A stretch of DNA of 64,000 nucleotides, taken from contig DATIWL010000082.1 of NCBI GenBank assembly GCA_035519435.1, positions 5,692-69,691 of the forward strand, in the 5' to 3' direction. The translations under genes were made by a program, and so were the position numbers. The notes below the pieces were generated by a model. The model searched no databases. It was not told where the DNA came from and saw nothing but the letters and a program-made list of their open reading frames with translations. Source of the stretch: Terriglobales bacterium. GTDB lineage: Bacteria; Acidobacteriota; Terriglobia; Terriglobales; Acidobacteriaceae. Within the stretch, counting starts at the first letter, position 1. Each line of letters begins with the position of its first letter. This document shows positions 29,667-63,304 of this stretch, in pieces.

Positions 29667-29690
29667 GGCAGCGACAGAATTGGAGTTCCT

Positions 29691-45521: not shown

Positions 45522-45853
45522 GGCCTTGAAGGAGAACTATGAACCGAAAGGACTTACCCTATCGCAAGCAATCCCACGTCCTTGTGTCAGATCTTAGCAT
45601 CTGCGCCCCCAACAACCTCGTGCCCCAGGTAACTCGGCTGCTCCCCCGAAAGCCTTTGCTGACGCGGATGTTCGGCCTCAACTGGCTTGAAATCCAGCCA
45701 AAAGCCTGCAATCGTCCTACCTTAGGCTGCGGTGGTTCGCCTGTAGTTGACTGGAAAACAAGCATCTTTCGACGCTTGAATGACATGGAGGGATACGGAT
45801 GTGCAAATCCCTTCACCTTTCTGGAACCGTCGTGGATAGATGGGGTTAAGGGT

Positions 45854-46879
45854 TCAGCCTGGCAGGCGCGAACTGGCACCAGTTTGCAGGAACCAGCGTT
45901 CCATCCGCCAGATCCACCCGTCGAAGTCCTTGCCAGCAGGGATACGCTTGAGGCTCAGCGGCTCTTCTCCCGAAAAAACCGGTCCGGTGGTGGTCAGGAC
46001 CGCGGACTTGAATCCTGCTTCGCGAGTGATCTGAAGTGTCCGTTGATTCCAGTGAGGCTCCAGTGCTGGATGGGGATAGGAAAAATGCTGGATGGGCTGA
46101 CCGAGTTTCTCATCGAGACGCTGCTTGCACCCCTGGATTTCGGCCCGCGCATCTACTTCGGTGACGTGAGCAAGATTGGGGTGAGACAACGTGTGCCCTC
46201 CGATCGTGTGACCTGCGTTCTTCAGGGCGCGAACCTGATCCCAATTCATCATCAAACCGCTTTTGCGATCCAGAGGCTCAACCTGGAGAGACTCTTCGAT
46301 CTGGCGAATGAACTGTTCCTGAGCGGCGCCAGCCAGTGCCGCACCCAGGTCCCAGACCACGTTCAGCGCTGCTTTCTTGCCGTCATCGCTGGCGATAGCA
46401 AAGGTCCGGTTGTTCTCGGGATGCTTCCATTCGCGTACCGCCGTCGTATTGAAGGCAAAATTAAGCCGGGCATACCAGGGAGGTGTGCCCGTGTCTACCG
46501 CATTCACCATGATGTAGAACGTTGCCGGAACGCCGTACCGATTCAGGATTGGCGTGGCCACATCATGGTTGTCGGCGAAGCCGTCGTCGAAAGTCACGGC
46601 TGCCGACCGCGGAGGCAAAGGCTTCCCCTCGGCGGCGAACTCTCTGACTTGCTCGATGGTGACGGGATTAAAATGCCGGGCTAACGCGCCGATTTGAGCT
46701 TCAAAACTGGCTCTCGCATGGGAGATGCGAATGGTATTGGCGGTGTCCTGTGGGTTTTCGACTACCGAATGGTAACCAAGGACCAGGACGCGAGGTCTGG
46801 CAAGGCGGGTCGCAGCCCTGAGAATCCCGCTGTTTACGGCCATGCTTTTCAGCCATTGCTTGGGTCTGAATCGAGGCAA
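45854..46879 (-). CDS. Polysaccharide deacetylase (NodB homology) family protein
   Basis: VTFDDGFADN.., GHTIGGHTLSHPNL.. and ..FSYPHP are NodB-domain motifs. Confidence 0.85.
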   Translation of the reverse strand: MPRFRPKQWLKSMAVNSGILRAATRLARPRVLVLGYHSVVENPQDTANTIRISHARASFEAQIGALARHFNPVTIEQVREFAAEGKPLPPRSAAVTFDDGFADNHDVATPILNRYGVPATFYIMVNAVDTGTPPWYARLNFAFNTTAVREWKHPENNRTFAIASDDGKKAALNVVWDLGAALAGAAQEQFIRQIEESLQVEPLDRKSGLMMNWDQVRALKNAGHTIGGHTLSHPNLAHVTEVDARAEIQGCKQRLDEKLGQPIQHFSYPHPALEPHWNQRTLQITREAGFKSAVLTTTGPVFSGEEPLSLKRIPAGKDFDGWIWRMERWFLQTGASSRLPG

Positions 46880-47024
46880 AGATCGCTCCTGCGCGAGGCC
46901 ATCGGGTGACTAGTGTGCCATTGCGGTCGATGAATGATAGCGTATTATGACAGCCACCGACCATGCGCGTAGAAGGCGCGGGTCACCCACCTTGGGGACA
47001 TCAGCTACCAACTGGAGAGATTGA

Positions 47025-47834
47025 ATGAGTTCGGAACAACACGTCCAGGAAGTCAAAGAACAGGTTAACGAGCTGTTCACGAAAACGGTGGACGACTGGG
47101 CGCGCTTTTACGAGGATCCAAAGCCGGCAACCTTGACCGCCCAGAACCTTGTTTCCCGGCGCCGGTTCACGCTGGAGATGGTCGAATCGCGGCTTGCCCC
47201 GGGGTCGAAGATCCTGGATGTCGGATGCGGGACGGGCCACCTGGCCGGAGCCTTAATGCAGCGCGGCTATGACGCCTGGGGTGTGGACTTCTCCGAGGGC
47301 ATGGTGCAGTACGCCGCCGTACACTACCGCGCGGATCGCTTTCAGGTGGGTGATATTGAGCGGATTCCATTCCCGGACAACACGTTTGATGGAATCGTCT
47401 GCCTTGGGGTGATGGAGTACCTGAGCAGCGATGAAAAGGCTCTTCGTGAGATGTGGCGGGTGCTGAAACCGGGTGGCGTAGCCATCATCACGACGCCGAA
47501 CGCCCTCTGCCCCTTCTGGTACTGCGACCGTGGATTGCTGAAAGCGAGAATTCTCGCCCGGCCATTGGTGCGCCTCGTGCGGAGGTCGTTGACCGCGGCA
47601 AAGGATTTGCCGACTGTCACGCACCGCCGATTCTTCCCCGGCCACTGGGCCAAGTTGATGCGCTCCGTAGGACTGAAGACAGAAGAAGTGGTCTGCCACG
47701 CCTGGGGATGGTACAGCCTGGAACGATTCTTTCCCCAGGGAGGTTTCTGCCGCGCAAGTGACCGCTTCGCCCGCAACCGCGCGATCAACTGGTTCGCTTC
47801 GGATCAGCTCTCCTGCGTTCGCGCAATCAAATAG
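47025..47834 (+). CDS. Class I SAM-dependent methyltransferase
   Basis: ILDVGCGTGHLAG (motif I), FDGIVCLGVMEYL, LKPGGVAII. Confidence 0.85.
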   Translation: MSSEQHVQEVKEQVNELFTKTVDDWARFYEDPKPATLTAQNLVSRRRFTLEMVESRLAPGSKILDVGCGTGHLAGALMQRGYDAWGVDFSEGMVQYAAVHYRADRFQVGDIERIPFPDNTFDGIVCLGVMEYLSSDEKALREMWRVLKPGGVAIITTPNALCPFWYCDRGLLKARILARPLVRLVRRSLTAAKDLPTVTHRRFFPGHWAKLMRSVGLKTEEVVCHAWGWYSLERFFPQGGFCRASDRFARNRAINWFASDQLSCVRAIK

Positions 47835-49029: not shown

Positions 49030-49035
49030 CCGCGG

Positions 49036-49920
49036 TTAGTAGGTAGTCCTATACCCACGTCGGCGTGCCTCGTTCAACAACCGTTCCAGTCCTTTCCGGT
49101 TCTTCAGCGGTAACCTGCGCAGTGCCGACCGTGCCAGGGCCACATACACTTCGCGCGGTAGGGGGTGGTTTCTCAACACGGCGAGGTGCCGCGCCACCGT
49201 ATCCACGTCTCCACGGATGATCGGCCCGCTGAAGGAGTTCCCGGGCCCGAGTCGAGTGTAGTTCTCCAATGTCTGGCGGACGATGGGCAAGCTCATGCGG
49301 CGCGCGTCGTTACGGCTCAGTCCCGCCACGGCCGCGGCTTCCTCCAGCGTCACGAGAAAGGCCAGCAGCAGAGGCGAAGTCATGGTCGCCCAGGCGTGAT
49401 AGGCGGCTTTGCGTGAAGCTGAAAGCCGGAAACTCAATCCGCCCAAATCGCGCACGATGCGGCGAGCAAAGCGGACCGCGGCGGAATCGCCTTCTACGGC
49501 AAAAGGAACGCCGGCGAGTGGGGGCCGCGTCGCCGCGACAAACGTCATGAGTGGATGCACGGACGCGACCGCGATCCCGACCTTGCGCAACGGCTCCAAC
49601 TCGCGGCTGCTGAGGGCGCCGCTTGCATGGAACGCAAAGCGGACTCTTTCCTTCCCGAGTTTCGTCACTGAAGCTGCCGCTTTGCGTATCTCGCGATCGG
49701 GAACGCAAAGCCAGAGCAGACCGGCTCGCAGTTGGGCCGACTCAAGTGTGACCGCCTGCGCACCGACAGCTCGCGCCAGCCGCTGTGCGCGACGATGTGA
49801 GGCGGATGAGCCGCGGCCGGCAATCTCAGCGATGGTATAGCCGGCGTCCCTGAGCGCGGGCGCCAGGGAGGTGGCCAGGCTGCCGGCCCCGACAATTGCG
49901 ATTCGGGGCTTGCGAGTCAC
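49036..49920 (-). CDS. Rossmann-like plus DUF2520 domain protein
   Basis: PRIAIVGAGSLATSLAPAL dinucleotide fold. The C-terminal pattern ..TGP..RGD.. is typical of DUF2520. Confidence 0.75.
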   Translation of the reverse strand: MTRKPRIAIVGAGSLATSLAPALRDAGYTIAEIAGRGSSASHRRAQRLARAVGAQAVTLESAQLRAGLLWLCVPDREIRKAAASVTKLGKERVRFAFHASGALSSRELEPLRKVGIAVASVHPLMTFVAATRPPLAGVPFAVEGDSAAVRFARRIVRDLGGLSFRLSASRKAAYHAWATMTSPLLLAFLVTLEEAAAVAGLSRNDARRMSLPIVRQTLENYTRLGPGNSFSGPIIRGDVDTVARHLAVLRNHPLPREVYVALARSALRRLPLKNRKGLERLLNEARRRGYRTTY

Positions 49921-50039
49921 GCGCGCAGCATATCATTGCAGACCGCGCGCCGGCTCGCTTACCCGAAACGGGCCCGGAGTCGTGCGCTCCGAACGGAGCC
50001 GGAAGAGGATTCGTCACACGCTCGGTTATATTGTCTGTC

Positions 50040-50609
50040 ATGGGGAAATCAGGAACGCCACGGTCCAAAGCACGAGTTATTTCTTCGCGCGTAAGCTATC
50101 GCGGACCAGTCTTTTCCGTCACGACCGATCAGGTGGAGGAGCCGGGAGGAATTCGGGCCCGTCGCGATGTGGTCCGGCACTCGGGTTCGATCGTCGTGCT
50201 GGCGGTAGACGATCACTCTCCTGAGCCGCGAATTCTGCTGGAGTGGCAATACCGGCATGCGGCCGGAGCGATGATGTTGGAACTCCCCGCCGGGCGGATC
50301 GACGATGGCGAACGCGAGCTGGCGGCGGCCAAACGCGAATTGCTGGAAGAAACCGGCTATAGCGCGCGGCGCTGGAAGAGGATGTTGCATTTCTATGTCA
50401 GCCCTGGCTTCCTCGACGAAGCTATGACCATCTACCTCGCTCAAGACCTCAAGGCAGGTATCGCGCAACCCGAGGAAGACGAGAAGATTCAGATCCGGTT
50501 CGTCCCGCTTTCCCAGGCCGTTCGCATGGTCGGCAGTGGCCAGATCCGGGACGCCAAGACGATCGCCGGCCTCCTCTGGTTTGCCCAGAACGGCAGAAAA
50601 CATCGGTAA
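50040..50609 (+). CDS. NUDIX hydrolase (ADP-ribose pyrophosphatase-like)
   Basis: Nudix box [26 protein letters not shown] 50040 is preferred over 49896, which overlaps the divergent gene. Confidence 0.85.
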
Positions 50610-50773
50610 ATCCCACGGATTCCGCGTGGGCGAAGCTGGCCGACATGTCCGCGTCCCGTGTGATACCAGTCCTTGACAGTGCCCATGTGCCGCCTCACAA
50701 TGCGTACGCATTCCTGCAGCCTCACGCGGGAATCGTCCACCGTTTCGCGGGAGGCGCGGGGCAGGGGGGGCAC

Positions 50774-50983
50774 GTGGAACGTCTGAAAGGAACCGTCAAG
50801 TGGTTCAACAACGCGAAGGGATACGGGTTCATCGGCCGCGACGACGGGCCTGATGTATTCGTACACTACAGCGCGATCACCGCCGAAGGCTATAAAAGCC
50901 TTCAGGAGGGTGACAAAGTCGAATTTGAAATTGTTCAGGGACAGAAGGGCCCTCAGGCAGCGAACGTAACGAAGGCCTCCTAG
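50774..50983 (+). CDS. cspA: Cold-shock protein (CspA family)
   Basis: [15 protein letters not shown] (RNP1), DVFVHYS (RNP2). In-frame GTG 50774 gives 69 aa, with a long 5' leader as is typical for csp genes. Confidence 0.9.
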
Positions 50984-51000
50984 TCTGCGAGGCCGTTTTT
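50974..51000 (+). terminator. Rho-independent terminator after csp
   Basis: GGCCTC (50974-50979), 9-nt loop, GAGGCC (50989-50994), then GTTTTT. Confidence 0.55.
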
Positions 51001-51105
51001 CCTCAACGCCCAGGTTATTGTTTTCCTCTGGCCGCAGGCTGTGGTGTGCCTCTCCGCACTCCGATCCAACGCATTCGCATCCGCGGCGCTACAATTTCTC
51101 CATTC

Positions 51106-52848
51106 ATGGACAACAAGGCTATCGCCAGCGTTCTGTACGAAACCGCCGACCTGCTCGAAATCGACGGGCAGGATTCTTTCCGTGTGCGCTCCTACCGTAA
51201 TGCCGCGCAGGCGATCGAGGCATTGCCGCAGCAGGTGAAGGATCTGATCGAGGAGCCGAAGAAACTGCTCGAAGTTCCCGGCATCGGCAAAGGTATGCTG
51301 CTCAACATGCAGCAGCTTCTCAGCGAAGGACGGCTCGAAGCGCACGCCGCATTGCTGAAGAAGTACCGGCCCTCAATGCTGGAACTGCTCAAGATTCAGG
51401 GCTTGGGACCGAAGACGATCGCGCTGATCTGGAGCGCCTATCAGGTCAGCGACCTCGACGGGGTCGAGAAGCTGGCGCGTGAGGGCAAGATTCGCACGCT
51501 GCCGCGCATGGGCGAAAAGCATGAGCTGAAGCTGATCAAGGCGATTGAAGACTACCGCCGAATCGGCGGGCGGTTCCTGCTGGATACAGCGGAACAATTG
51601 GCGGAGAAGCTCGTCGAGCATTTGCGGCAGGTTCCAGGCGTGGAGAAAGTGACGCCGGCGGGCTCCTTGCGTCGCGGGCGTGAAACGGTTGGAGATCTCG
51701 ACATCCTCGTGACCGGCAAGGCTTGCTGCTCTGCGGAAGCGCTGCAGACGATCAAGGACCATCTGATTCGTTTTCCTGGCCTGATGGAGATCATCGCGCA
51801 GGGCGAGAACAAGGTCAGCTTTCGTCAGCGCAACGGCATACAGGTCGACGTGCGCCTTCTGCCGCCGGAATCCTTCGGCGCCGCCATGCAGTACTTCACC
51901 GGGTCGAAGGCGCATAACGTTGCCTTGCGCCAGCGCGCGTTGAAGATGGGTTACACGCTCAGCGAATACAGCCTGGCCACGCTGGAAGGCGAAAAGCCGG
52001 TCGCCGGCAAAACAGAGGAGGAGATTTACTCGAAGCTGAAGCTGGATTTCATCCCCCCTGAATTGCGTGAAAACCAGGGCGAGATTGAAGCGGCGGCAAG
52101 TCACTCGCTGCCAGAGTTGCTGGAACTGGCGGACATCCGCGGCGATGTGCACATGCACACGGTGGAAACCGACGGCCGCAACACGATCGAGGAGATGGCG
52201 GAAGCCGCACGCGAGCGCGGATATCAGTACATCGCGATCACGGACCACTCGAAGAACCTTGCCTTCGCCAACGGTCTCACGGACGAGCGCGCACTGATCC
52301 ACATCGACCGGATTCGGACGGCAGAGAAAAAACAGAAAGGTCTTCGCATACTGGCTGGCGTCGAAGTCGATATTCTCGTCGATGGCGCTCTTGATCTGTC
52401 TGATTCTGTACTCGCCCAGATGGATATCGTCATCGCCAGCGTGCACTCACACTTCAATCAGGATCGCGACACGATGACCGAGCGATTGCTGAAGGCGGTC
52501 AGCAATCCGAACGTCTCGGTTCTTGGACACCCGACTGGCAGGCAGTTATTGCGGCGCGATGCGTATCCATTCGACATGGACGCCGTCCTGAAAACTGCGG
52601 CCAAGAACAAAGTGGCCATGGAACTCAATGCATATCCCGACCGGCTCGACCTGTGTGATGTGCACCTGAGGATGGCCAAGCAACATGGCGTAAAAGTCGT
52701 GATCAATACCGATTCCCACCACACCTCGCACCTGGACAAAATACGCTACGGTATAACCCAGGCCCGGCGGGCCTGGCTGACAAAGGATGACGTCCTGAAC
52801 ACTTTGCCGGCCCAGAAGTTTGCTTCTGCCATTCGACGGGGATGGTGA
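51106..52848 (+). CDS. polX: DNA polymerase X family protein with C-terminal PHP domain
   Basis: MDNKAIASVLYETADLLEI.. (HhH), GSLRRGRETVGDLDILV (pol beta-like nucleotidyltransferase), and PHP histidines (DVHMHT..TDHS..). Confidence 0.9.
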   Translation: MDNKAIASVLYETADLLEIDGQDSFRVRSYRNAAQAIEALPQQVKDLIEEPKKLLEVPGIGKGMLLNMQQLLSEGRLEAHAALLKKYRPSMLELLKIQGLGPKTIALIWSAYQVSDLDGVEKLAREGKIRTLPRMGEKHELKLIKAIEDYRRIGGRFLLDTAEQLAEKLVEHLRQVPGVEKVTPAGSLRRGRETVGDLDILVTGKACCSAEALQTIKDHLIRFPGLMEIIAQGENKVSFRQRNGIQVDVRLLPPESFGAAMQYFTGSKAHNVALRQRALKMGYTLSEYSLATLEGEKPVAGKTEEEIYSKLKLDFIPPELRENQGEIEAAASHSLPELLELADIRGDVHMHTVETDGRNTIEEMAEAARERGYQYIAITDHSKNLAFANGLTDERALIHIDRIRTAEKKQKGLRILAGVEVDILVDGALDLSDSVLAQMDIVIASVHSHFNQDRDTMTERLLKAVSNPNVSVLGHPTGRQLLRRDAYPFDMDAVLKTAAKNKVAMELNAYPDRLDLCDVHLRMAKQHGVKVVINTDSHHTSHLDKIRYGITQARRAWLTKDDVLNTLPAQKFASAIRRGW

Positions 52849-52978
52849 AGTGCCCCGGCGACTGGGCAACAGTATTCCTATTATTCCCGCCGTGCCCTGC
52901 TGCAAGCTGCAAATGCATTCACACCAGCGCTGCTCCCCGGCTAGAATCAACCAGTTAGGGCCGTAGCGGGGCAAATCG

Positions 52979-54172
52979 TTGGTCTCTGACGTGCTGGCCG
53001 TGACAGAGGGGTGCCCTGCCCTCCAGGTCGAATTTACGACTGATCTGAGGTCCGAGGAAAAGACGCGATTGGCCGAAGTGACGATTCAAGCGAACCAGAT
53101 CGAGACAGTTCCCATACAGAGCGCCGCTCGTGGGACGGATACGTCTGCGGATCGCAGCCGTCGTCCTGTGTTTGTGATTGGCTGCCACCGTTCCGGTACG
53201 AACCTGCTTTACGACATGCTTCTTTCCTCGGGCGACTTCGCGATCTACCGCGGACAGCTGCCGGTCTATAAGCTGTTCCTCCCAAAGTTCGGCAGCCTGG
53301 ATAAACGGGGCAATATGGAACGCGCCGTAGACACGTGGCTCCATAGCAAGGGTTATCGCAGGTCAGGCCTGAAGGCGAAGGAAATTCGGGCGAAGCTTCT
53401 GGAGGCGCGCCACAGCGCAGGGGACTTCATGCGCACCGTCATGAACGAGATCGCCAGCAACCAGAATGCGCGGCGCTGGGCGATCTACGATCCCGATGGC
53501 GTGCTTTACATGCAGCAGATCAAGGCGGACATTCCGGAGGCTTTGTTCATCCACATCGTCCGTGACGGGCGCGACATCGCTCTCTCCCTGAAAAAGATGG
53601 AAGGTTTCAAGCCCCTGCCGTGGGACATTGGCTCGTCGCGGGGACTGCTCGCGACGGCCGCCTACTGGAAATGGATGGTTCGGACGGGACAGACCTGCGG
53701 GCGCACGATCCCGGCAGACTACATGGAAGTGCGATACGAAGATCTTGTGCAAACGCCGCACGAGACGCTCGCAGCGCTCGGCCGTTTTTTAGATCACGAC
53801 CTGGATTACGAGCGGATCCAGAAAGCCGGTCTGGGGCGATTAAGCGAGACGAATTCCTCCTTTCGCGAGGAAGGGGCGCATTCTGGGATCAACCCTGTCC
53901 AGCGCTGGAAGGAGCGGCTGTCACACGACCAGGTTGCTGCTCTTGAAGCGCTGGTCGGTGACTGCCTGGAAGAACATGGATATGAGTTGGCGACTCCATT
54001 GAAACAGAGAAAGGCCGGACTCCACGGAAAATGGATCCGCGCTTTCTATCCGGCTCTGCTCGGTGCTAAGCAATGGCTGAAGACCAGGACTCCACTGGGG
54101 AAGCTGGCTAATTTATCGGTGCTGGAACTCTCCGACGTGGTGCCCGAGACCAGCGTGGTGGACAGCAGGTAA
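52979..54172 (+). CDS. Sulfotransferase family protein (Sulfotransfer_3-like)
   Basis: PVFVIGCHRSGTNLLYDML (PAPS 5'-phosphate loop), FIHIVRDGRDIALS, YEDLV. Start (TTG 52979) uncertain. Confidence 0.75.
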   Translation: MVSDVLAVTEGCPALQVEFTTDLRSEEKTRLAEVTIQANQIETVPIQSAARGTDTSADRSRRPVFVIGCHRSGTNLLYDMLLSSGDFAIYRGQLPVYKLFLPKFGSLDKRGNMERAVDTWLHSKGYRRSGLKAKEIRAKLLEARHSAGDFMRTVMNEIASNQNARRWAIYDPDGVLYMQQIKADIPEALFIHIVRDGRDIALSLKKMEGFKPLPWDIGSSRGLLATAAYWKWMVRTGQTCGRTIPADYMEVRYEDLVQTPHETLAALGRFLDHDLDYERIQKAGLGRLSETNSSFREEGAHSGINPVQRWKERLSHDQVAALEALVGDCLEEHGYELATPLKQRKAGLHGKWIRAFYPALLGAKQWLKTRTPLGKLANLSVLELSDVVPETSVVDSR

Positions 54173-54190
54173 AACGGAGACACTCCTCTA

Positions 54191-55594
54191 GTGGATTCCA
54201 CTTCCGATCACGGTCCGCTGTTGGGACGAGCCCTGCTGGCTCTCACCTGCCGCATGCGCGGCTTCGACACGCTGGGTGTACTCGACGAGATCAAGACGGC
54301 ACCGTTCCGGCCGGCTGAAGAAATCCGGGAGAGGCAATTCCGCGCAGCCGCTTCCCTGCTGGCGCATGCTGAAACGCACGTTCCCTACTACCGTGAACTG
54401 TTCCGCAGTCTCGGGATCATCAGCCGCGATATCCGCAGCTGGGACGATTTCGAAAAGTTGCCGGTTTTGACCAAAGACATCATCCGCGCAAGGCAGCGCG
54501 ATCTGGTGCGGGAAGATGTGCCGTTGGAACAACTGCGGCCCCACTTCAGCGGAGGATCGACAGGCGTGCCTCTGAAATTCTTCCGCAGTCGCGAATACAT
54601 GGTCGCCAGCGACGCAGGGACCTACCGCAATTTGATGCAATGCGGATGGCGTCCGGGAGAGATGGTCGCCTTCTTCTGGGGCGGGAACGACAAGCTCTAC
54701 GCCATGTCCCGAATAGAATTCGAGTTGCGCCAGTTCGCGCGCCGCATGTATCAGTTCGACCCTTTTCATTCCGGCGAAGCAGAAATGGCCAGCTGGGAAA
54801 GGCAATTCCGGCGGATCCGGCCTCGCGCGATTCTCGGGTATGCCTCTACGATCGCGCGTTTTGCGCAATTCCTCGACAGCCGCAAGCAAACGATCGATCG
54901 GATCAAAGGCGTTTTCACAACCGCGGAGAAGTTGTACGCGCCGCAACGCGCCGTCATCGAACGCGTCTTCCAGGGCAAGGTGTTTGACTGCTATGGCTCG
55001 AGTGAGGTGCAGAACATCGCAGCCGAGTGCCTTAGGGGAAGCATGCACATCAACGCCGATTTCGTCGTGCTCGAGGAGGATCGGACGGCGGCGCAAGGTC
55101 CAAGACCGTTCCTGCTGACCTCGCTGAAGAACTGGTCCATGCCGTTCCTTCGTTATCGCAACGAGGACTGCGGATATGTTTCAGGTGAACGCTGCTCGTG
55201 CGGCAACAATTTTCCATTGATGCGGCTTGAGATCGCTCGCACCAGCGACAATTTCCTGTTTCCGGGCGGGCGAGTCGTGCACGGCGAGTTCTTCACGCAC
55301 CTTATGTATGGCAGCGACGGGATCGTGAACTTCCAGTTTCATCAGACCGCCACAGACGAAATCAAACTGTGGATCGTGCCCGGTCCGGGAAATGAAAGGG
55401 CGCGTGAGGAGAAGATCCAGGAATCGATTCGACAGATTCAGGCGGTATCTCCAGGTCATCCCATTCGAATCGAGGTACGAGAGGTCGATGCCATCCCGCT
55501 GTCCACGGCCGGGAAGCACCGCTTCACTCGGTCCGACGTGGGTTCGCGAACCAGCTCGGCTCCCGATCCTGCCGTGGCGGAAATCAGGTCCTGA
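54191..55594 (+). CDS. CapK/PaaK-like adenylate-forming enzyme (phenylacetate-CoA ligase family)
   Basis: SGGSTGVPLKF AMP-binding loop. The pattern YYRELF..W.DF.KLPVLTK is typical of F390-synthetase/CapK relatives. Confidence 0.8.
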   Translation: MDSTSDHGPLLGRALLALTCRMRGFDTLGVLDEIKTAPFRPAEEIRERQFRAAASLLAHAETHVPYYRELFRSLGIISRDIRSWDDFEKLPVLTKDIIRARQRDLVREDVPLEQLRPHFSGGSTGVPLKFFRSREYMVASDAGTYRNLMQCGWRPGEMVAFFWGGNDKLYAMSRIEFELRQFARRMYQFDPFHSGEAEMASWERQFRRIRPRAILGYASTIARFAQFLDSRKQTIDRIKGVFTTAEKLYAPQRAVIERVFQGKVFDCYGSSEVQNIAAECLRGSMHINADFVVLEEDRTAAQGPRPFLLTSLKNWSMPFLRYRNEDCGYVSGERCSCGNNFPLMRLEIARTSDNFLFPGGRVVHGEFFTHLMYGSDGIVNFQFHQTATDEIKLWIVPGPGNERAREEKIQESIRQIQAVSPGHPIRIEVREVDAIPLSTAGKHRFTRSDVGSRTSSAPDPAVAEIRS

Positions 55595-55965
55595 CCTCAG
55601 AACCGTTCATTCCACCCGTTTAGCTGCCTCCCGTTGGGGATGGTAGAGTGGAACTTGCGACTCCATTTCCGAGGGTCGTACCGCATTCTTTTTCACACTT
55701 AACGACGGGTTCGGCTGGAATCTGGTCCGCTCGGGGGCGCGTTGGGGTTTTAGGGTATTGTTGTCAATAACTTACATAACCACGTTCAGCCGCCTACGGA
55801 ATTGGAATTGCTCCTCCTGCCCTGTTACACAGCTTTCGTACGCAGCCAGAGAACATCTGTAGAACGACGCTGGGGTAGAGGATGCCCTTGCAGCCCCGCG
55901 GGGGAGCCCTGGCGGCCGGAGTGATGACAAGCGGAATCGTTTGCTTTCCCAGAAAACAGAGGTAT

Positions 55966-57735
55966 ATGGAACACACCATGGAGGTTACAGAATTGACGGT
56001 CTCGACCAACCATCTTATCGCCCCGCACGGGGGAGAACTTATTGAGCTGCAAGTGCCGGCCGAGCGTGCCGCGGAGTTGAAAGCGCATTCCAAAGAATGG
56101 CCGTCCTGGGACCTGACGGGACGTCAGCTGTGCGATCTGGAACTGTTGGTGAGTGGCGGGTTTTCGCCGCTGCGTGGATTCCTGAACCGCGCCGATTATG
56201 AGAGCGTTTGCTGCGACATGAGGCTGGCGGACGGAACACTGTGGCCGATGCCGATCACTCTCGATGTCACCGAAGAATTTGCCAAGAAACTGACTCCCGG
56301 CAGCAGCAAGGTTGCATTGCGCGATCCCGAGGGCGTGATGCTGGCCGTCGTTCATGTCGAAGATGTATGGCAACCTGACCGTGTAGCGGAAGCAAAGGCG
56401 GTATTCAATTCGACGAGCGCGGCCCATCCTGGGGCCGATTATGCCATCAACAAGTCGAACCCATGGTACGTAGGCGGCAGGGTGGAAGGCCTGCAACCGC
56501 CATCCCACTACGATTTCCGCAGCCTCCGCCTGACCCCAGCGGAGCTTCGCGCTGAATTCCAGCGCCTGGGATGGACGCGTATTGTTGCCTTCCAGACCCG
56601 CAACCCGATGCACCGCGCGCACGTTGAACTGACGATGCGGGCAGCGAAACAGGTGGAAGCCGATCTGCTCATTCATCCATCGGTCGGAATGACCAAGCCG
56701 GGCGACGTCGACTACTTTGTCCGTACCCGTTGCTACCAACTGCTGCTCTCCAAGTACCCGCACGGGACGGTAAAGCTTTCCATGCTGCCTCTGGCGATGC
56801 GTCTGGGCGGTCCGCGGGAGGCCATCTGGCACGGCCTGATCCGCAAGAACCACGGCTGCACGCACTTCATCGTCGGACGCGATCATGCCGGCCCGGGAAA
56901 AGACACCGACGGGAAGCCGTTCTATGGTCCGTATGACGCTCAGGAACTCTTCAAGAAGCACGAAGCAGAGATGGGCGTGATCATGGTGCCCTTCCAGATG
57001 ATGGTCTACCTGCAGAACGAGGACCGCTATGTACCCGCGGATGAGGTACCACAGGGCGCAAAGGTTCTCGATATCTCCGGCACTGAATTGCGCGCCCGGC
57101 TGAACGAAGGCCGTGAAATTCCGAGTTGGTTCACGTACCCGGAAGTGGTGCAGGAGTTGCGCCGGAGCTATCCGCCGCGGCACAAGCAGGGCGTAACGAT
57201 CTTCTTCACGGGCCTTTCCGGCTCCGGTAAATCGACGATCGCCAACGCGCTGATTACCAAGTTTCTCGAAATGGGCGGACGCCCGGTGACGCTGCTGGAT
57301 GGCGATCTGGTGCGCAAGCATCTCTCGTCGGAGCTCGGCTTCTCCAAAGAGCACCGCGACATCAACATCCGGCGTATCGGTTACGTGGCTTCGGAAATTA
57401 CGAAGAATGGCGGCATCGCCATCTGCGCTCCGATCGCGCCCTATGAGGCGACGCGAAAAGCTGTGCGGCAGATGATCGAACCCTATGGCGGCTTCATCCT
57501 GGTGCATGTGGCCACTTCGCTTGAAGTCTGCGAGGAGCGCGACCGCAAGGGGTTGTACGCGAAGGCGCGTGCCGGCATCGTAAAGGAGTTCACGGGCATC
57601 TCAGATCCGTACGAAGCGCCCCCGAAGGCCGAGGTGGTGATCGATACGGCGAAGCTGAGTCCGGAAGAAGCCGCACAGGCCATCATTCTGCATCTCGACC
57701 GTGAAGGCTTTATTGGGGTGAACGGCAACCAGTAG
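55966..57735 (+). CDS. Bifunctional sulfate adenylyltransferase / adenylylsulfate kinase (PAPS synthesis)
   Basis: ATP sulfurylase motifs QTRNPMHRAH and VGRDHAG. C-terminal APS kinase P-loop GLSGSGKST and LDGDLVR. ATG 55966 (MEHTMEVTEL) preferred. Confidence 0.9.
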   Translation: MEHTMEVTELTVSTNHLIAPHGGELIELQVPAERAAELKAHSKEWPSWDLTGRQLCDLELLVSGGFSPLRGFLNRADYESVCCDMRLADGTLWPMPITLDVTEEFAKKLTPGSSKVALRDPEGVMLAVVHVEDVWQPDRVAEAKAVFNSTSAAHPGADYAINKSNPWYVGGRVEGLQPPSHYDFRSLRLTPAELRAEFQRLGWTRIVAFQTRNPMHRAHVELTMRAAKQVEADLLIHPSVGMTKPGDVDYFVRTRCYQLLLSKYPHGTVKLSMLPLAMRLGGPREAIWHGLIRKNHGCTHFIVGRDHAGPGKDTDGKPFYGPYDAQELFKKHEAEMGVIMVPFQMMVYLQNEDRYVPADEVPQGAKVLDISGTELRARLNEGREIPSWFTYPEVVQELRRSYPPRHKQGVTIFFTGLSGSGKSTIANALITKFLEMGGRPVTLLDGDLVRKHLSSELGFSKEHRDINIRRIGYVASEITKNGGIAICAPIAPYEATRKAVRQMIEPYGGFILVHVATSLEVCEERDRKGLYAKARAGIVKEFTGISDPYEAPPKAEVVIDTAKLSPEEAAQAIILHLDREGFIGVNGNQ

Positions 57736-57775
57736 TGGGGTCGGATCCGCACCTGGGCGGGCAGGCACGGAACGC

Positions 57776-58546
57776 ATGGAACTGGTGACACTAAAAATCC
57801 TGATCGGGTTCATTGTGGGGACCTTGATCGGGCTGACGGGATTGGGCGGCGGCGTGTTGCTGCTGCCCATACTCATCTTTGGGTTGCGTGTCCCTCCCAT
57901 CATCGCGGTGGGATCCGATGCCCTATTCAATTTCCTGACGAAAATCCCGGCCGGTATTCTTCACCTGTCGAAGGGCACGGTTCGGAAGAAGGTCGTCGCC
58001 GCCATGGCGGTGGGCAGTGTCCCGGGATCGCTGCTCGGGGTAACCCTCCTGCAGCACTTGCGGAACGTATATGGAACGGGGGTCAATGACTTCATCAAGT
58101 CCGCTGTGGGAATGCTGCTGGTCTGCATTCCCATGCTTCTGCTGTTTCAGGGCCGCATTGAAGAGCACCTGGCCAAGCGGAAGCCGACGCTGAAGTCTCT
58201 TGCTGGGATGAGCGTCATTGGCCTGTTCGGCGGATTTCTGGTCGGCATGACCTCGGTAGGCTCGGGGAGCATTATCATGATGCTCCTGCTTCTGTTCTAT
58301 ACCTACGCGCCCAAGGTGATGGTGGGCACCGATATTGTGCATGCTGTCATCCTTACAGGTGTAACGAGTCTGCTGCACGCGCGCTTGGGCAATGTCGATT
58401 TGTCGCTCGTTATTCCGCTTCTGGTCGGTTCAGTTCCGGGCGGCATTCTCGGGTCGCACCTGAGCACGCGGGTGCCGGTGCTCTGGCTGCGGAGAATCCT
58501 GTGTGCCGTACTGCTGACGACCGGAGCCAGAATGTTGTGGGCGTAA
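57776..58546 (+). CDS. TauE/SafE family sulfite/organosulfur anion permease
   Basis: 256 aa with about 8 TM helices. GLTGLGGGVLLLPIL and the second-half repeat GMTSVGSGSIIM are typical of the family. Confidence 0.8.
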   Translation: MELVTLKILIGFIVGTLIGLTGLGGGVLLLPILIFGLRVPPIIAVGSDALFNFLTKIPAGILHLSKGTVRKKVVAAMAVGSVPGSLLGVTLLQHLRNVYGTGVNDFIKSAVGMLLVCIPMLLLFQGRIEEHLAKRKPTLKSLAGMSVIGLFGGFLVGMTSVGSGSIIMMLLLLFYTYAPKVMVGTDIVHAVILTGVTSLLHARLGNVDLSLVIPLLVGSVPGGILGSHLSTRVPVLWLRRILCAVLLTTGARMLWA

Positions 58547-58549
58547 GAG

Positions 58550-58640
58550 CAGTGGCTAGAAAGCAGCTTTTCGCTCCTGCCGTTAGCTCTTAGCTTGCAC
58601 CTCAAGAGCGAAGCTGTTGGCTAAAAGCTGGGAGCTGACC
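58550..58640. repeat. Heptad element (AGCT word family)
   Basis: TAGCTCT TAGCTTG (58584-58597) and AAGCTGT TGGCTAA AAGCTGG GAGCTGA (58611-58638). AAAAGCTGGGAGCTGA is the reverse complement of TCAGCTCCCAGCTTTT at 5538-5553. Confidence 0.6.
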
Positions 58641-58654
58641 ACAACGGAGATTTC

Positions 58655-59464
58655 ATGACGCAATCGCAAGACACCGTCGTACGCATCCATGCCGCGCTCG
58701 AAGCCGCGCGTGCGGTGCTGAAGACATTTACTCCGGGCGCGATCGAAGCGGAGTACAAGGCCGGCCACGATCCTGTGACGGAAGCCGATCGCGCGGTCGA
58801 TCGCGTGCTTCGCGAAAATCTCTTGCGCGAGGGCGAAGGCTGGCTTTCGGAAGAAAGCGTCGATAATCTTTCCCGGCTGGAGAAACGACGGGTATGGGTA
58901 GTCGATCCACTCGACGGCACCCGTGAATTCGTGCAAGGCATCCCTGAGTTCTGCGTTTCCATCGCCATGGTCGAAGACGGGATTCCTGTCGCGGGCGGAA
59001 TCTGCAATCCCGCGACGGACGAATTGATTCTCGGTTCGCGCGAGACCGGGGTGACCTACAACGGCCAACCGGCTCATCCCAGCCAGCGCAAGGGCCTGCA
59101 TGGAGCCCTTGTCCTCGCCAGCCGCAGCGAAGTCAAGCGAGGCGAGTGGAAGCAGTTCGAGTCTGCCGAGTTCAATATTCGGCCGATGGGCTCTGTCGCT
59201 TACAAATTGGGCCTGGTGGCGGCTGGCAAGGCTGATCTCACATTCACGCTCGTGCCGAAAAACGAGTGGGACGTCGCGGCTGGCGCGGCGCTGGTCGAAA
59301 GCGCCGGAGGTTTCATCCTCACCCTCAACAACTCGCCCCTGCGCTGCAACCAGAAGGATCCATTGCTATCCGGACTCCTGGGCGGAGGGCCATTTCTGCG
59401 CGCGCCATTGCTGGCGCTGCTCGACCGCCACGCGCAGACTGTGGGAGACGACAAATCGCGCTGA
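58655..59464 (+). CDS. cysQ: 3'(2'),5'-bisphosphate nucleotidase (CysQ-like, inositol monophosphatase fold)
   Basis: WLSEES, WVVDPLDGTREF, WDVAAGAALVESAGG motifs. Context is next to PAPS synthase. Confidence 0.75.
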   Translation: MTQSQDTVVRIHAALEAARAVLKTFTPGAIEAEYKAGHDPVTEADRAVDRVLRENLLREGEGWLSEESVDNLSRLEKRRVWVVDPLDGTREFVQGIPEFCVSIAMVEDGIPVAGGICNPATDELILGSRETGVTYNGQPAHPSQRKGLHGALVLASRSEVKRGEWKQFESAEFNIRPMGSVAYKLGLVAAGKADLTFTLVPKNEWDVAAGAALVESAGGFILTLNNSPLRCNQKDPLLSGLLGGGPFLRAPLLALLDRHAQTVGDDKSR

Positions 59465-59534
59465 ATCATCTGCGACCGGCCAGGAACTACAATACTCGTC
59501 TGTATTGTTCCGGAAGCTCCCAGATACCAATCCG

Positions 59535-60320
59535 ATGGCTGCCTCTCGCATCGTCTACCTGATGTACCACGAGTTGGAACTCGAGGGCCGGAAGTTGGTC
59601 CAGTCCGAACCCGGCTACGTGCGTTACATTCTGCCGCTCGGCGTTTTCCGACGGCAAATGGAAGTGATGAGAGATGCGGGTTTCCGGGGTTTAAGCGTCG
59701 GCGAGGCGATTCACGATCCCCACGAACGAAGTGTCTGCATCACCTTCGACGACGGCTGCGAGACGGATCTGATTGCCGCCGCTCCCGTGCTGCAGGATCT
59801 CGGCTTTCGGGCAACCTTCTTTCTCACGGCGGGGTTTCTCGATACCCCGGGCTACTTACGTTCAGCCCAGGTCCGCGACTTGGACGCCCGCGGCTTTGAG
59901 GTTGGATGTCACTCGATGACGCATCCCTACCTCACCGATCTCTCGGACGCCGAACTCCGGCGTGAGGTCGTCGATGCCAAGCATCGTATTGAACAAATCG
60001 TGGGCCACACGATCGAGCATTTCTCCTGCCCGGGCGGACGCTACGATTCCCGCACCCTGGAGGTCGCCCGGCGCGCCGGATTCCACACGGTAGCTAACAG
60101 CGAGTTTCATGCCAACTCTTCCACCGCCAGCCCCTACCGACTTGGCCGCGTGGCGATTCTCCGGGACATGACAGAGGAGGAATTCGTGGACATTTGCGGC
60201 GGTCAGGGCCTGTGGAAAAGACGGTTGCAGGATCAAGTCCGTCGCGGCGTGCGGCAGTTCCTCGGGAATCGGGCCTACGAGCGCATACGCTCCTCTCTTC
60301 TCCGCGAGCGCCAGACATAG
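59535..60320 (+). CDS. Polysaccharide deacetylase (NodB homology) family protein
   Basis: ITFDDGCETD, GCHSMTHPYL and FSCPGG motifs. ATG 59535 preferred; the longer ORF from 59100 overlaps cysQ. Confidence 0.85.
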   Translation: MAASRIVYLMYHELELEGRKLVQSEPGYVRYILPLGVFRRQMEVMRDAGFRGLSVGEAIHDPHERSVCITFDDGCETDLIAAAPVLQDLGFRATFFLTAGFLDTPGYLRSAQVRDLDARGFEVGCHSMTHPYLTDLSDAELRREVVDAKHRIEQIVGHTIEHFSCPGGRYDSRTLEVARRAGFHTVANSEFHANSSTASPYRLGRVAILRDMTEEEFVDICGGQGLWKRRLQDQVRRGVRQFLGNRAYERIRSSLLRERQT

Positions 60321-60621
60321 GCGCTGCCCAAGCCTGTTACCATCGGCGCCTCACAGCGCTCTCTGGCTCTTCAACTCGTTCATATTGCACAAAGGGTGCG
60401 AATCGAGAGAGTAACCCCTCTGCACTAGTTACTGAACCTATCCTGGCCGAACGCCACAGTCATGCGCGAATCCGCGCTTCGCGCGGTGTCCGCCACGGCA
60501 TGTACGGGTGCGTTGTACCCGACATGCCCTGTCGGCATCTGGGCCCCTTTACGCCATCCCGGTAGATTCGATGCTGAGGACTCGAGCTACCAGTCCCCCA
60601 CTTCGTAAACGAGGGCTCGTG

Positions 60622-63285
60622 ATGTCCAAAACAAGATGGGTATTATCCCGGGGAAGAATTCCGCGGGCTACATTCATAGAACACTTGCTGCATGTCCTTG
60701 CCGGCACGCTCGTGCTCGCTGCGGCGCTGCTGACCACGTCTTGCGGTTTGATGGCGAACAACTCCAGCCAAGATACCGCTGAGGCCCTGACATTATCGGG
60801 GACTCTCCCGAACGGCGTCACCCACCAGGAATATAGCGCGGTGCTGACGGTGAGCGGCGGGAGTGCTCCGTATCAGTTTTCCGTCCTGTCAGGAAGCCTG
60901 CCTCCAGGTATGAGCCTGAATCCGGCCACTGGCTCCCTCTCCGGGACGCCGACGGCCGCCGGCGCATACGTCTTCGAAATCGCAGTCACTGACTTGCCGG
61001 CCCCGCATCGGGGGAGCAAGAGTTTCAGTGTCTCGGTCAAATCCGGCGATTCTGGAAGCGGCGTCCACGTCACAGTGTCGCCTTCGACCCTCAACATCGT
61101 CTCCGGTGAAAGTTACTCATTTACCGCCACGGTAAAAGGAACCGACAACCCAGGTGTGACCTGGGCGGCCTCCGCGGGCTCCATCACTTCAGCAGGCGTT
61201 TACACCGCTCCATCGGTGAGTACGGCAACCAACGCCACGATTACCGCTACGAGCAAGGCCGACTCCAAGCAAGAGGGCGTCGCGATGGTCGTCATCGAAC
61301 CGGCGCACGGCTCGGCACTGACTATCACCAGTAGCGGCCTGCCAGATGGCCGAACCGGAGCTGCGTACGATGCAGCGTTCACGGCGACGGGGGGTACCTC
61401 GCCCTACATTTGGAGCGTGTCCGCCGGCCTGCCTCCGGGCTTGAGCCTTGCGGCGAGCACCGGTGAATTGGCGGGAATGCCGAGCGCCGTCGGCACGTAC
61501 GGCTTCACGGTAAAGGTCACCGATGCCAAGGCGCAGTCGGTGCAAAAGGCATTTTCGGTGAATGTTGCGGCGAGCGGCAATGTTGATGGCCCGGCTGAAC
61601 TGCCACGCGTGACCGTATCCAGCACCATGGCCGACACACTCGCTCCCGGTCGCGTGATCCCCGTGAGTGCGGGCGGCGATCTTCAGGCTGCTCTGAACAG
61701 CGCCAAGTGCGGAGACATTGTGGAACTCCAGGCCGGCGCTACGTTCAGCGGAACGTTTACGCTGCCGGGTAAGAGCTGCGACAGCAATCACTGGATCATC
61801 GTACGTAGCAGCGGCTTCGAGAGTGTCCTATCGGAAGGAAGCCGCGCCAATCCATGCTTTGCCGGAATTCGATCGCTGCCCGGGCGTCCTGCCTACAGTT
61901 GCTCGAACCCGCAGAAAGCCATGGCGCGCCTAGAATATTCGAAGACGGCAAACGGACCCATCATCCTGGGCAGCGGCGCCAATTACTACCGCCTGGTTGG
62001 ACTCGAGATTACCAAGACCGACGGGGTTAGAAGCGCTCCTACGCTGATCTCCGTGACACCGGGCGGGCTGGCCGACCATATCGTAATTGACCGTTCCTGG
62101 CTGCACGGTAATACGCATGACGAAACGCAGGCTGGTGTCTCGCTGAATCGGATCAATTATGCCGCCGTCATCGATTCATACTTCAGCGACTTCCATTGCA
62201 TCTCGGGCACGGGGATGTGCACGGACGCGCACGCCGTGGCCGGCGGCCTCGGCAACCACCAGGATGGTCCCTGGAAGATCGAGAACAATTTCCTGGAGGC
62301 TTCCGGTGAAGCCATCCTGTTCGGTGGAGGCGCGGCGACGGTTACGCCCGCCGACATCGAGATCCGTCGCAATCACTTCTTCAAGCCATGGCAATGGATG
62401 CCGGGAAGCGCGGGGTTCGTTGGATCCGCCGACGGGCACCCATTCATCGTCAAGAACCACGTCGAACTCAAGAACGCGATGCGGGTGCTGATCGAAGCCA
62501 ACATCCTGGAAAACACCTGGGGAGGCTTTACGCAAGCGGGGTATGCTCTTCTACTGTGCCCCAAGAACCAGCACACTCGAGGCAACGGAAATGTCTGTCC
62601 GCTGTGCCAGGTGCTGGATGTGACGGTGCGCTACACGCGCATCATGCACTCGGGCGGCGGGATCGCGATGTCCACGGCGATCTCCGGGTCCCACGGGAAT
62701 GGAAGCTACGCTCTGGCGGGTGGGCGTTTCAGTATCCACGATGTTGTCATCGATGATGTCAACCGCAAGTACGTGGGGCCTGGAACCTTGCTCCAGATTT
62801 CCAATCACTGGCCGAAGAATCCGCTCAACACGATCACGATTAATCACATCACCGCGTTTCCGGCCGAGGACAGCCATCTGATAAGCATGGGAGATATCAA
62901 CTCCGCTCCCCCGATGTACGGCTTCGTTTTCACGAACAACATTGTAATGACGGGGGCATACCCGGTGTGGAACATGGGTGGCGGAGACACATCCTGCGCT
63001 TACGGCCGTACGCCGGTTGAAAAGATCTCGAGTTGTTTTAAGACCTATCAATTCAGCAACAATGCCCTGGTCGCCGCTCCGGCAGCTACTCCGCCATCGG
63101 CCTGGCCGTCCGGGAACTTCTTCCCGACCACAGCGGATGCCGTGGACTTTACCCAATACAAGCCAGGTGGAGGCGGCAACTACCAGTTGCAGTCGAAGAG
63201 TCCTTTTAAGGGCGCGGGCACCGACGGTCGTGATCTGGGGGCGGATATCGCCGGATTGCAGGCCGCGATAGCAGGTGTCGAATAG
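60622..63285 (+). CDS. Secreted lipoprotein with Ig-like repeats and right-handed beta-helix domain
   Basis: Lipobox LLTTSCG. Two putative-Ig repeats (LPPGMSLNPATGSLSGTPTAAGAYVFEIAVTD and LPPGLSLAASTGELAGMPSAVGTYGFTVKVTD). One Big_2-like repeat. The C-terminal ~550 aa resemble a pectate-lyase-fold beta-helix (CGDIVELQAGATFSG, IVIDRSWLHGN, IENNFLE). Confidence 0.7.
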   Translation: MSKTRWVLSRGRIPRATFIEHLLHVLAGTLVLAAALLTTSCGLMANNSSQDTAEALTLSGTLPNGVTHQEYSAVLTVSGGSAPYQFSVLSGSLPPGMSLNPATGSLSGTPTAAGAYVFEIAVTDLPAPHRGSKSFSVSVKSGDSGSGVHVTVSPSTLNIVSGESYSFTATVKGTDNPGVTWAASAGSITSAGVYTAPSVSTATNATITATSKADSKQEGVAMVVIEPAHGSALTITSSGLPDGRTGAAYDAAFTATGGTSPYIWSVSAGLPPGLSLAASTGELAGMPSAVGTYGFTVKVTDAKAQSVQKAFSVNVAASGNVDGPAELPRVTVSSTMADTLAPGRVIPVSAGGDLQAALNSAKCGDIVELQAGATFSGTFTLPGKSCDSNHWIIVRSSGFESVLSEGSRANPCFAGIRSLPGRPAYSCSNPQKAMARLEYSKTANGPIILGSGANYYRLVGLEITKTDGVRSAPTLISVTPGGLADHIVIDRSWLHGNTHDETQAGVSLNRINYAAVIDSYFSDFHCISGTGMCTDAHAVAGGLGNHQDGPWKIENNFLEASGEAILFGGGAATVTPADIEIRRNHFFKPWQWMPGSAGFVGSADGHPFIVKNHVELKNAMRVLIEANILENTWGGFTQAGYALLLCPKNQHTRGNGNVCPLCQVLDVTVRYTRIMHSGGGIAMSTAISGSHGNGSYALAGGRFSIHDVVIDDVNRKYVGPGTLLQISNHWPKNPLNTITINHITAFPAEDSHLISMGDINSAPPMYGFVFTNNIVMTGAYPVWNMGGGDTSCAYGRTPVEKISSCFKTYQFSNNALVAAPAATPPSAWPSGNFFPTTADAVDFTQYKPGGGGNYQLQSKSPFKGAGTDGRDLGADIAGLQAAIAGVE

Positions 63286-63304
63286 AGAAACTCGGACTTC
63301 GCCG

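Follow-up and report, generated by a model that had tools for sequence, protein, structure and literature searches.

The DNA considered here is a 64 kb stretch (hereafter, the window) from an uncultured Terriglobales bacterium of the Acidobacteriota, and the genes in question, at positions 55978-59464, encode a bifunctional ATP sulfurylase/adenosine 5'-phosphosulfate (APS) kinase (Sat/CysC), a permease of the TauE/SafE family and a CysQ-like phosphatase. These genes probably constitute a unit for the supply and clean-up of 3'-phosphoadenosine 5'-phosphosulfate (PAPS) that lies within a locus for a sulfated extracellular glycan and is inherited together with it. In such a scheme, the permease would import sulfate, which Sat/CysC would then convert with two ATP to PAPS through APS. 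Cytoplasmic sulfotransferases, namely the product of the adjacent Sulfotransfer_3 gene, three Sulfotransfer_1 proteins encoded 10 kb upstream and a further Sulfotransfer_3 protein encoded downstream, would move the sulfate onto a glycan intermediate, itself built by a family 2 glycosyltransferase (GT2), modified by a NodB-type deacetylase and a methyltransferase, and flipped by Wzx. The CysQ-like phosphatase would hydrolyse the inhibitory 3'-phosphoadenosine 5'-phosphate (PAP) to AMP, and beta-helix proteins at the surface would cleave or reshape the polymer after its export.

The enzymes of the proposed PAPS unit

Families were assigned with Pfam and NCBIfam on open reading frames (ORFs), with sequence matches in the PDB and, for Cys genes, with tblastn. 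Sat/CysC contains PUA_2, ATP-sulfurylase and APS_kinase domains, all three recognised by Pfam, and it matches the NCBIfam model NF004040 at 927.5 bits (cutoff 669) over model positions 4-570 of 572. The motifs QTRNPMHRAH, GRDHAG, GLSGSGKST and LLDGDLVR are all intact and, since both motif sets are kept, both the sulfurylase and the kinase activities are predicted; judged in this way, the protein should make PAPS. Full-length matches in the PDB are to 1I2D (E 8e-208) and 2GKS (E 9e-178). The second of these, from Aquifex aeolicus, has the same two-domain architecture and keeps both motif sets, as does the window protein, whereas 1I2D, from P. chrysogenum, shares the two-domain arrangement but in the alignment has a degenerate kinase P-loop (TGYMNSGKD) and shows LLLGD where the window protein has LLDGD. 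We take the kinase-like C-terminal domain of 1I2D to be regulatory and not catalytic. The kinase domain of the window protein is nearest to that of T. denitrificans 3CR8 (E 3e-83), in an alignment that begins only at query residue 162; here FSKEHRDINIRR of Sat/CysC corresponds to FSKAHRDVNVRR of 3CR8, and the two have in common an unusual FSKxHRDxNxRR stretch. 3CR8 is an experimentally active APS kinase with an inactive sulfurylase-like domain.

The permease gene, which directly follows Sat/CysC in every context with downstream sequence, encodes a protein that matches PF01925 at 156.8 bits (threshold 32.6) over model positions 2-237 of 237. With regard to its function, deletion of C. glutamicum CysZ (Cg3112, DUF81 family) abolishes growth on both sulfate and sulfite, and CysZ, like the window protein, is a TauE/SafE-family membrane protein encoded together with sulfate-activation genes (PMC1266029). 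The likeness is at the level of the family, and the C. glutamicum cluster, cysIXHDNYZ, is assimilatory (PMC1266029). The genetic requirement for a DUF81 protein when C. glutamicum grows on sulfate nevertheless supports an import role for the window permease which, by analogy, would be a sulfate importer in both direction and substrate.

For the phosphatase, the original prediction of a CysQ-like enzyme is upheld in part. The protein contains WVVDPLDGT (VVDPLDGT) and EWDVAAGA, in other words the DPxDGT and WDxAAG metal-binding motifs of the inositol monophosphatase (IMPase) family (PF00459), which are superfamily-wide and not specific to CysQ. CysQ (TIGR01331) is the best NCBIfam model at 142.2 bits, as against 120 for HisN and 77 for SuhB, but this score lies below the equivalog cutoff of 228.8. 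Commensurate with this, the top PDB matches are generic IMPase/SuhB proteins, with true CysQs lower in the list (B. thetaiotaomicron 3B8B, 1e-22; M. tuberculosis 5DJF, 8e-17). What stands is the IMPase family, the ranking of CysQ as best model and the linkage to Sat/CysC; what does not is membership of the CysQ equivalog. It is because of its gene neighbourhood, therefore, that we infer the protein to be a PAP 3'-phosphatase, its specificity for PAP included.

Conservation of the unit and its linkage to sulfation genes

For comparison, 79 loci were collected around homologues of a CapK/PaaK-like ligase that is encoded just upstream of Sat/CysC, with one genome taken per species. Three extra contexts were added from Sat/CysC orthologues, and the window proteins were mapped onto all loci, individual examples of which are given below by their L numbers; the coverage is 64 kb of the host genome and +/-10 kb around the anchors in relatives. 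Ligase and Sat/CysC homologues occur in uncultured Terriglobales, 'Acidobacteriaceae' and other Acidobacteriota metagenome-assembled genomes (MAGs), the majority of which derive from bogs, fens and soils.

The order Sat/CysC, TauE, CysQ-like is preserved in all eight contexts that have downstream sequence (the window, L009, L010, L031, L034, L086, L087 and L088). The CysQ-like gene is usually followed by the deacetylase gene (as in L010, L014, L034, L086 and L088) and then by a gene for a He_PIG/beta-helix protein; in L017 and L079 this deacetylase-He_PIG part stands alone within the stretches covered. The surroundings of the unit are less constant, in that it is inverted relative to the ligase gene in L010 and L014 and lies upstream of it, not downstream, in L009 and L038. 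Even after such rearrangement, sulfotransferase genes are found within 10-20 kb of the unit, and all nine loci with Sat/CysC have a sulfotransferase gene no more than 10 kb away.

The original prediction had the unit probably feeding the three Sulfotransfer_1 proteins encoded 10 kb upstream, and when co-occurrence of the two modules was checked in relatives, it was indeed found. A module of Wzx, three Sulfotransfer_1 genes, GT2, a flavoprotein and a methyltransferase lies beside the Sat/CysC unit in five loci (L007, L031, L034, L087 and L088), and in L087 the modules are contiguous: the upstream module, which there also holds a UDP-glucose dehydrogenase and extra deacetylases, abuts Sat/CysC directly, with its Sulfotransfer_1 orthologues adjoining Sat/CysC and no housekeeping genes between. 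Orthologues of the window genes at 45539..47834 are present in L031, L087, L013, L014 and L018. Since the housekeeping genes lying between the modules in the window are all present in L007, L034 and L086, represented by PolX alone in L031 and L088, and missing from L087, the block is a variable insert. The overall picture is that Sat/CysC, TauE and the CysQ-like gene form a conserved unit which is probably co-inherited with the sulfation locus.

Two of the loci contain genes that seem to be split by frameshifts, a sulfotransferase in L034 (8978-10019) and Sat/CysC itself in L031 (13312-15049). Both are probably errors of long-read assembly and not pseudogenes.

Sulfotransferases, deacetylase and surface proteins

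The sulfotransferase encoded closest to the unit matches PF13469 at 90.6 bits (cutoff 27) and has VIGCHRSGTNLL, the 5'-phosphosulfate (PAPS) loop CHRSGTNLL and the 3'-phosphate motif IVRDGRDIALS; its relatives in the PDB, CurM-ST and Stf1, are weak matches. Described originally as the fourth sulfotransferase of the region, it is real, but it is not the last, since the L001 gene table contains a fifth (Sulfotransfer_3, 348 aa) after the second beta-helix gene, some 2 kb beyond the end of the window. The NodB-type deacetylase is likewise real, although its gene lies beyond position 59464, where the predicted module had been taken to end. It has no signal peptide, which places it in the cytoplasm.

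The gene after that of the deacetylase encodes a He_PIG protein, the N-terminus of which looks like a lipoprotein signal and the C-terminal 528 residues of which have no Pfam match. An AlphaFold2 (AF2) model of this C-terminal domain, built with a 56-sequence alignment in place of an unusable single-sequence model (pLDDT 31.7), is a right-handed beta-helix (pLDDT 82.7, pTM 0.88). Its neighbours in Foldseek (E ~3e-6, TM ~0.5) are the GH136 lacto-N-biosidase LnbX and a PL9 pectate lyase, followed by PL6 alginate lyases, chondroitinase B, phage capsule (tailspike) depolymerases, the AlgE4 epimerase and RbmB. The presence of a lipoprotein-like beta-helix protein in a locus that also encodes Wzx, GT2, a deacetylase and a methyltransferase suggests that an acidic glycan is exported; a glycan would be the acceptor of the sulfate.

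It may be added that a domain of ~530 residues is shared by two paralogous secreted proteins of the locus (60622-63285; 63532->), and that this domain has more than 5000 homologues in the protein collection.

Acceptor, dedication and alternative roles

Several observations weigh against a unit that supplies PAPS for glycan sulfation. In the first place, the nearest structures to the three Sulfotransfer_1 proteins are cytosolic SULT1A/2A (E 2e-26) and Teg12/StaL, such that these proteins resemble animal SULT1A/SULT2A and the glycopeptide-antibiotic enzymes Teg12/StaL more than they do carbohydrate sulfotransferases. Moreover, the window has one glycosyltransferase, and no polymerase, chain-length regulator or initiating transferase, and no Wzy or Wzc, was seen in it. 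On these two grounds a glycolipid or small-molecule acceptor is possible, and the PAPS might be destined for a small molecule or a lipid (a glycolipid, a hopanoid-type lipid or a phenolic) instead of a polysaccharide; a PAPS cluster that lies beside a cholesterol sulfotransferase in Bacteroides offers a parallel (PMC9417993). Such a destination appears unlikely, given the co-conservation of Wzx, GT2, the NodB deacetylase, the UDP-glucose dehydrogenase (L087) and two secreted lyase/hydrolase-like beta-helix proteins, together with a CapK/AsnB/GT4/Wzy context in relatives that is typical of polysaccharide loci.

Other observations also weigh against such a unit. Sat/CysC is 88-94% identical in more than 120 Terriglobales clusters, is apparently single-copy per contig and, at ~91%, is more conserved than the neighbouring housekeeping PolX (~84%). 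Such slow evolution and ubiquity in the clade are what a core metabolic gene would show, and are just as compatible with a general-purpose role. Among these fairly close relatives, some of the synteny may reflect inherited backbone and not selected linkage, and the phosphatase falls short of its equivalog cutoff, as noted above. Furthermore, 64 kb of the host genome having been read, Sat/CysC could be the sole sulfate activator and also feed a PAPS or an APS reductase. In its full form, this argument makes the unit a general-purpose operon and the cell's only sulfate activator, working mainly for cysteine and methionine through a reductase encoded elsewhere, with sulfotransferases that share the pool and a secondary linkage to glycan genes. 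E. coli-type assimilation, it should be said, needs both CysC and CysQ, and C. glutamicum imports sulfate for assimilation through a permease of the DUF81/TauE family (PMC1266029).

The gene neighbourhoods speak otherwise. The original prediction noted neither a PAPS reductase nor a sulfite reductase, and the window as a whole is devoid of reductive genes: tblastn with E. coli proteins and Pfam searches of large ORFs gave no cysH, cysI, cysJ, cysD or cysN. Likewise, tblastn with E. coli queries found none of these five genes near Sat/CysC among ~88 loci, and neither cysH, sir nor cysJI lies beside the unit in nine contexts, with the 10 kb around Sat/CysC free of reductive assimilation genes in each. 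The unit is, by contrast, always beside glycan-modifying and sulfotransferase genes, even when rearranged. The lone cysH-like match among the ~88 loci (L053, 20755-21219, minus strand) comes from an unrelated Acidobacteriota MAG; its CC...CxxC and ECGLH motifs are those of the Fe-S APS-reductase type, which has no need for an APS kinase, a point that is weak evidence here as it is drawn from another lineage. We therefore consider a general-purpose operon to be possible but on the unlikely side, while recognising that it and a supply for sulfated glycan are not fully exclusive, and that the unit, originally predicted to be dedicated to sulfation, may serve cysteine synthesis as well.

A dissimilatory role, in which Sat would activate sulfate for respiration, was also entertained, in view of the related MAGs from bogs and fens and of the existence of peat Acidobacteria that have sat, aprBA, qmoABC and dsr (PMC6018796). 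In the present case, however, the APS kinase joined to Sat is intact, the genes downstream include one for a PAP-phosphatase-like protein, and genes of the apr, qmo and dsr groups went unrecognised in the tables and scans of the Sat/CysC flanks (the window, L001-L006 and L086-L088), for which no dedicated homology search was run. With an intact fused kinase and none of these genes recognised in the annotated flanks, the role was rejected as extremely improbable.

Possible regulation of the unit

Upstream of Sat/CysC lies the motif ACGGAATTGGAATTGC, which has a GG-N10-GC arrangement with the -24/-12 spacing of sigma-54 promoters, including a TTGC box. Its core, ACGGAANNGGNATTGC, occurs once in the window, as against zero expected, and in a scan of 89 loci in all every occurrence lies 160-200 nt ahead of a Sat/CysC orthologue (L007 11639, L031 13126, L034 13072, L087 9838 and L088 9861). 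The flanks of ACGGAATTGGAATTGC have diverged among the relatives, with L086 having a diverged version of the motif itself, and a second conserved block, TATTGTTTTCAA..A.TTACA, is situated ~30 nt upstream of ACGGAANNGGNATTGC. The conserved upstream motif suggests that the genes from Sat to the CysQ-like one, possibly with that of the deacetylase, form a regulated transcription unit of their own, apart from the sulfotransferase/ligase pair. The identification of ACGGAATTGGAATTGC as a sigma-54 promoter element is speculative.

Scans for promoters and terminators were otherwise uninformative, with the lone promoter-like site, a consensus match in the PolX/sulfotransferase gap, not enriched over shuffles. 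No Rfam family matched positions 47000-64000 at E<=1, such that no known riboswitch controls the unit.

The CapK-like ligase

The adenylate-forming ligase encoded between the sulfotransferase and Sat/CysC was originally listed together with the sulfate genes; its neighbourhoods in the 79 loci contradict a place for it in the sulfate module. The protein has FSGGSTGVPLKF (FSGGSTGVP), PaaK matches in the PDB (E 7e-23 to 5e-19) and a precomputed Pfam CapK_C match, but scores well below the PaaK equivalog cutoffs (TIGR02155/NF041878, 44.5 bits vs 646 and 66.3 vs 700); by sequence, its membership extends to the PaaK/CapK/F390-synthetase superfamily only and not to PaaK proper. Across Terriglobales MAGs the ligase is 70-83% identical. 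ORF clustering and Pfam place a DUF362 gene immediately downstream of it in 40 of the 79 loci, AsnB-like amidotransferases are nearby in 47, and other recurrent partners are GT4 glycosyltransferases, Wzy-like proteins, heparinase II/III-like proteins and methyltransferases. The pattern holds in Pyrinomonadaceae, Bryobacteraceae, Vicinamibacteria, Gemmatimonadota and one Limisphaerales MAG, and most of the loci are without sulfation genes. Because of these partners, the ligase is seen as a generic enzyme of polysaccharide loci in three phyla, which may, by analogy with other ligases of its kind, catalyse amide formation on a sugar acid or an amino sugar; a part for it in the PAPS economy was rejected.

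The DUF362 partner is missing from both the window and its closest relative, L007, and has left no remnant in the 383-bp gap between the CapK-like gene and Sat/CysC. A cassette of a beta-helix protein, one or two Sulfotransfer_3 proteins, the ligase and DUF362 recurs in several Terriglobales loci, and its form without DUF362 is found in one Gemmatimonadaceae locus (L072).

Gene content and layout of the locus

The features of the locus are collected in Table 1. The gene calls of the window are consistent with four near-identical metagenome contigs, and the gene callers set the starts of Sat/CysC and of the adjacent sulfotransferase at 55978 and 52991, respectively. The six genes of the original prediction, from this sulfotransferase to the deacetylase, are present as listed, all on the plus strand and with the quoted motifs, as seen from ORFs, Pfam and NCBIfam. 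Their spacing, described as tight, is so for the most part (gaps of 18, 40, 108 and 70 bp) but not between the CapK-like gene and Sat/CysC.

Table 1. Genes and candidate control elements of the sulfation locus, with positions in the window
Feature	Position	Strand	Basis or remark
Wzx-type flippase	38838-40418	-	Pfam Polysacc_synt, Polysacc_synt_3; NCBIfam WZX_like
Three tandem Sulfotransfer_1 genes	40453-41421, 41322-42182, 42242-43129	-	PF00685, E 1e-35 to 4e-42; start of first ORF (40453-41421) uncertain
GT2 glycosyltransferase	43140-44132	-	Pfam, NCBIfam; syntenic with Sat/CysC in L007, L031, L034, L087, L088
PRK07208-type FAD oxidoreductase (flavoprotein)	44157-45521	-	Pfam, NCBIfam; syntenic with Sat/CysC in L007, L031, L034, L087, L088
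381-aa protein, no assigned family	45539-46684	+	Pfam scan
S-adenosylmethionine (SAM) methyltransferase	47025-47834	+	Pfam
Housekeeping block: RibA-like GTP cyclohydrolase II, DUF2520, NUDIX, cold-shock protein, PolX	47992-52848		Pfam, gene tables
Sigma-70-like promoter match, TTCACA-18-TAGAAT	52918-52947	+	PolX/sulfotransferase gap; consensus match only
Sulfotransfer_3 sulfotransferase, 393 aa	52991-54172	+	Longest ORF from TTG 52979
CapK/PaaK-like adenylate-forming ligase, 467 aa	54191-55594	+	PDB PaaK matches, Pfam CapK_C
Motif ACGGAATTGGAATTGC (GG-N10-GC, sigma-54 -24/-12 spacing, TTGC box)	55796-55811	+	167 nt upstream of Sat/CysC
Bifunctional ATP sulfurylase/APS kinase (Sat/CysC), 585 aa	55978-57735	+	NF004040
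TauE/SafE (TSUP, former DUF81) permease	57776-58546	+	PF01925
CysQ-like inositol-monophosphatase-family phosphatase	58655-59464	+	PF00459
NodB-type polysaccharide deacetylase, 261 aa	59535-60320	+	PF01522 (Polysacc_deac_1)
He_PIG Ig-domain lipoprotein-like surface protein, C-terminal right-handed beta-helix	60622-63285	+	Pfam, AF2
609-aa beta-helix paralogue, start only (cut by window end)	63532-64000	+	L001 gene table, tblastn

The remaining 36 kb of the window contain housekeeping genes. Among the other genes seen is one at 34464-35864 (plus strand) for a phosphoesterase of the phospholipase C type that has a weak match to sulfatases at its C-terminus, and homologues of this phosphoesterase are encoded directly upstream of the CapK-like ligase in L010, L020, L022, L025, L031, L036 and L079. 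Positions 28410-31286 (plus strand) encode a radical SAM protein and then a Memo/AMMECR1 fusion protein, a pair which we take to be the AmmeMemoRadiSam gene set.

Relation to known systems

Extra or specialised PAPS genes linked to a specific sulfotransferase for a secreted product are known from the rhizobial nodPQ/nodH and the Xanthomonas raxPQ/raxST systems. NodPQ and RaxPQ are homologues of CysD/CysN-CysC, and the acceptors are a lipo-chitooligosaccharide or a peptide; neither system is known to have a linked permease or CysQ.

Closer parallels are found in capsule clusters. In Cobetia marina KMM 1449, the sulfated capsule cluster includes an operon in which cysN/C, cysD and cysQ stand with the gene for a sulfate permease, and Vibrio sp. 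KMM 8419 has a second copy of cysDNC in its capsule cluster, with the authors of the Vibrio study regarding PAPS genes and sulfotransferases in a polysaccharide cluster as a hallmark of sulfated polysaccharide synthesis (PMC11766843, PMC11641403). As in these bacteria, the window has genes for ATP sulfurylase and APS kinase, for a putative sulfate permease and for a putative PAP phosphatase beside those for sulfotransferases, glycosyltransferase(s) and export genes, and by gene content the locus falls within the definition of a PAPS operon in a polysaccharide cluster of the Cobetia/Vibrio type (PMC11766843, PMC11641403). The likeness is one of genes, from which the product is predicted. It is accompanied by differences, in that the window has a homo-oligomeric Sat fused to CysC where Cobetia and Vibrio have the GTPase-coupled CysDN, and a TauE/TSUP permease with Wzx-type export, in an acidobacterium, where they have Kps ABC export. 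In B. thetaiotaomicron, BT_0411-BT_0416 comprises PAPS genes, a proposed sulfate importer and a cholesterol sulfotransferase, and is conserved across species (PMC9417993). There too, a sulfotransferase adjoins a proposed sulfate importer and PAPS genes, but with a host sterol as acceptor, one sulfotransferase and a CysDN-type sulfurylase, as opposed to the five sulfotransferases and glycan context seen here.

The principle of PAPS genes clustered with sulfotransferases is, therefore, already established, although it is apparently undescribed in the Acidobacteriota. In the literature searched, no report was found of sulfated glycans or exopolysaccharide in Acidobacteria, and nothing decisive was found on acidobacterial sulfur assimilation. 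The present locus differs in its fused Sat-type sulfurylase and TSUP permease, in its phylum and in having as many as five sulfotransferases.

Significance

Bacterial sulfated polysaccharides are regarded as rare, and biotechnology has an interest in them, for instance as heparin-like materials. The compact PAPS supply set of TauE permease, fused Sat/CysC and CysQ-like phosphatase is directly testable or reusable, and the locus gives a functional context to one TauE-family transporter and to one unassigned IMPase-family phosphatase.

Ester sulfate forms a large fraction of soil organic sulfur, and little is known of the organisms that make this ester sulfate. Since the locus is conserved in many uncultured Terriglobales of peat and soil, sulfated surface glycans are predicted in these abundant bacteria, and a conserved sulfation locus in such a clade is a useful and testable lead. 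A bolder proposal, which we hold to be doubtful but worth stating, is that, in a large, uncultured lineage of Terriglobales dominant in bogs and acidic soils, an acidic surface polysaccharide, heavily sulfated and with part of its N-acetyl groups removed, is a core trait. This polymer could be glycosaminoglycan-like, and would be served by five sulfotransferases together with a dedicated PAPS unit under separate control, possibly by sigma-54. If this were true, then the polysaccharide of these bacteria would possibly be a major biological source of the soil ester-sulfate pool.

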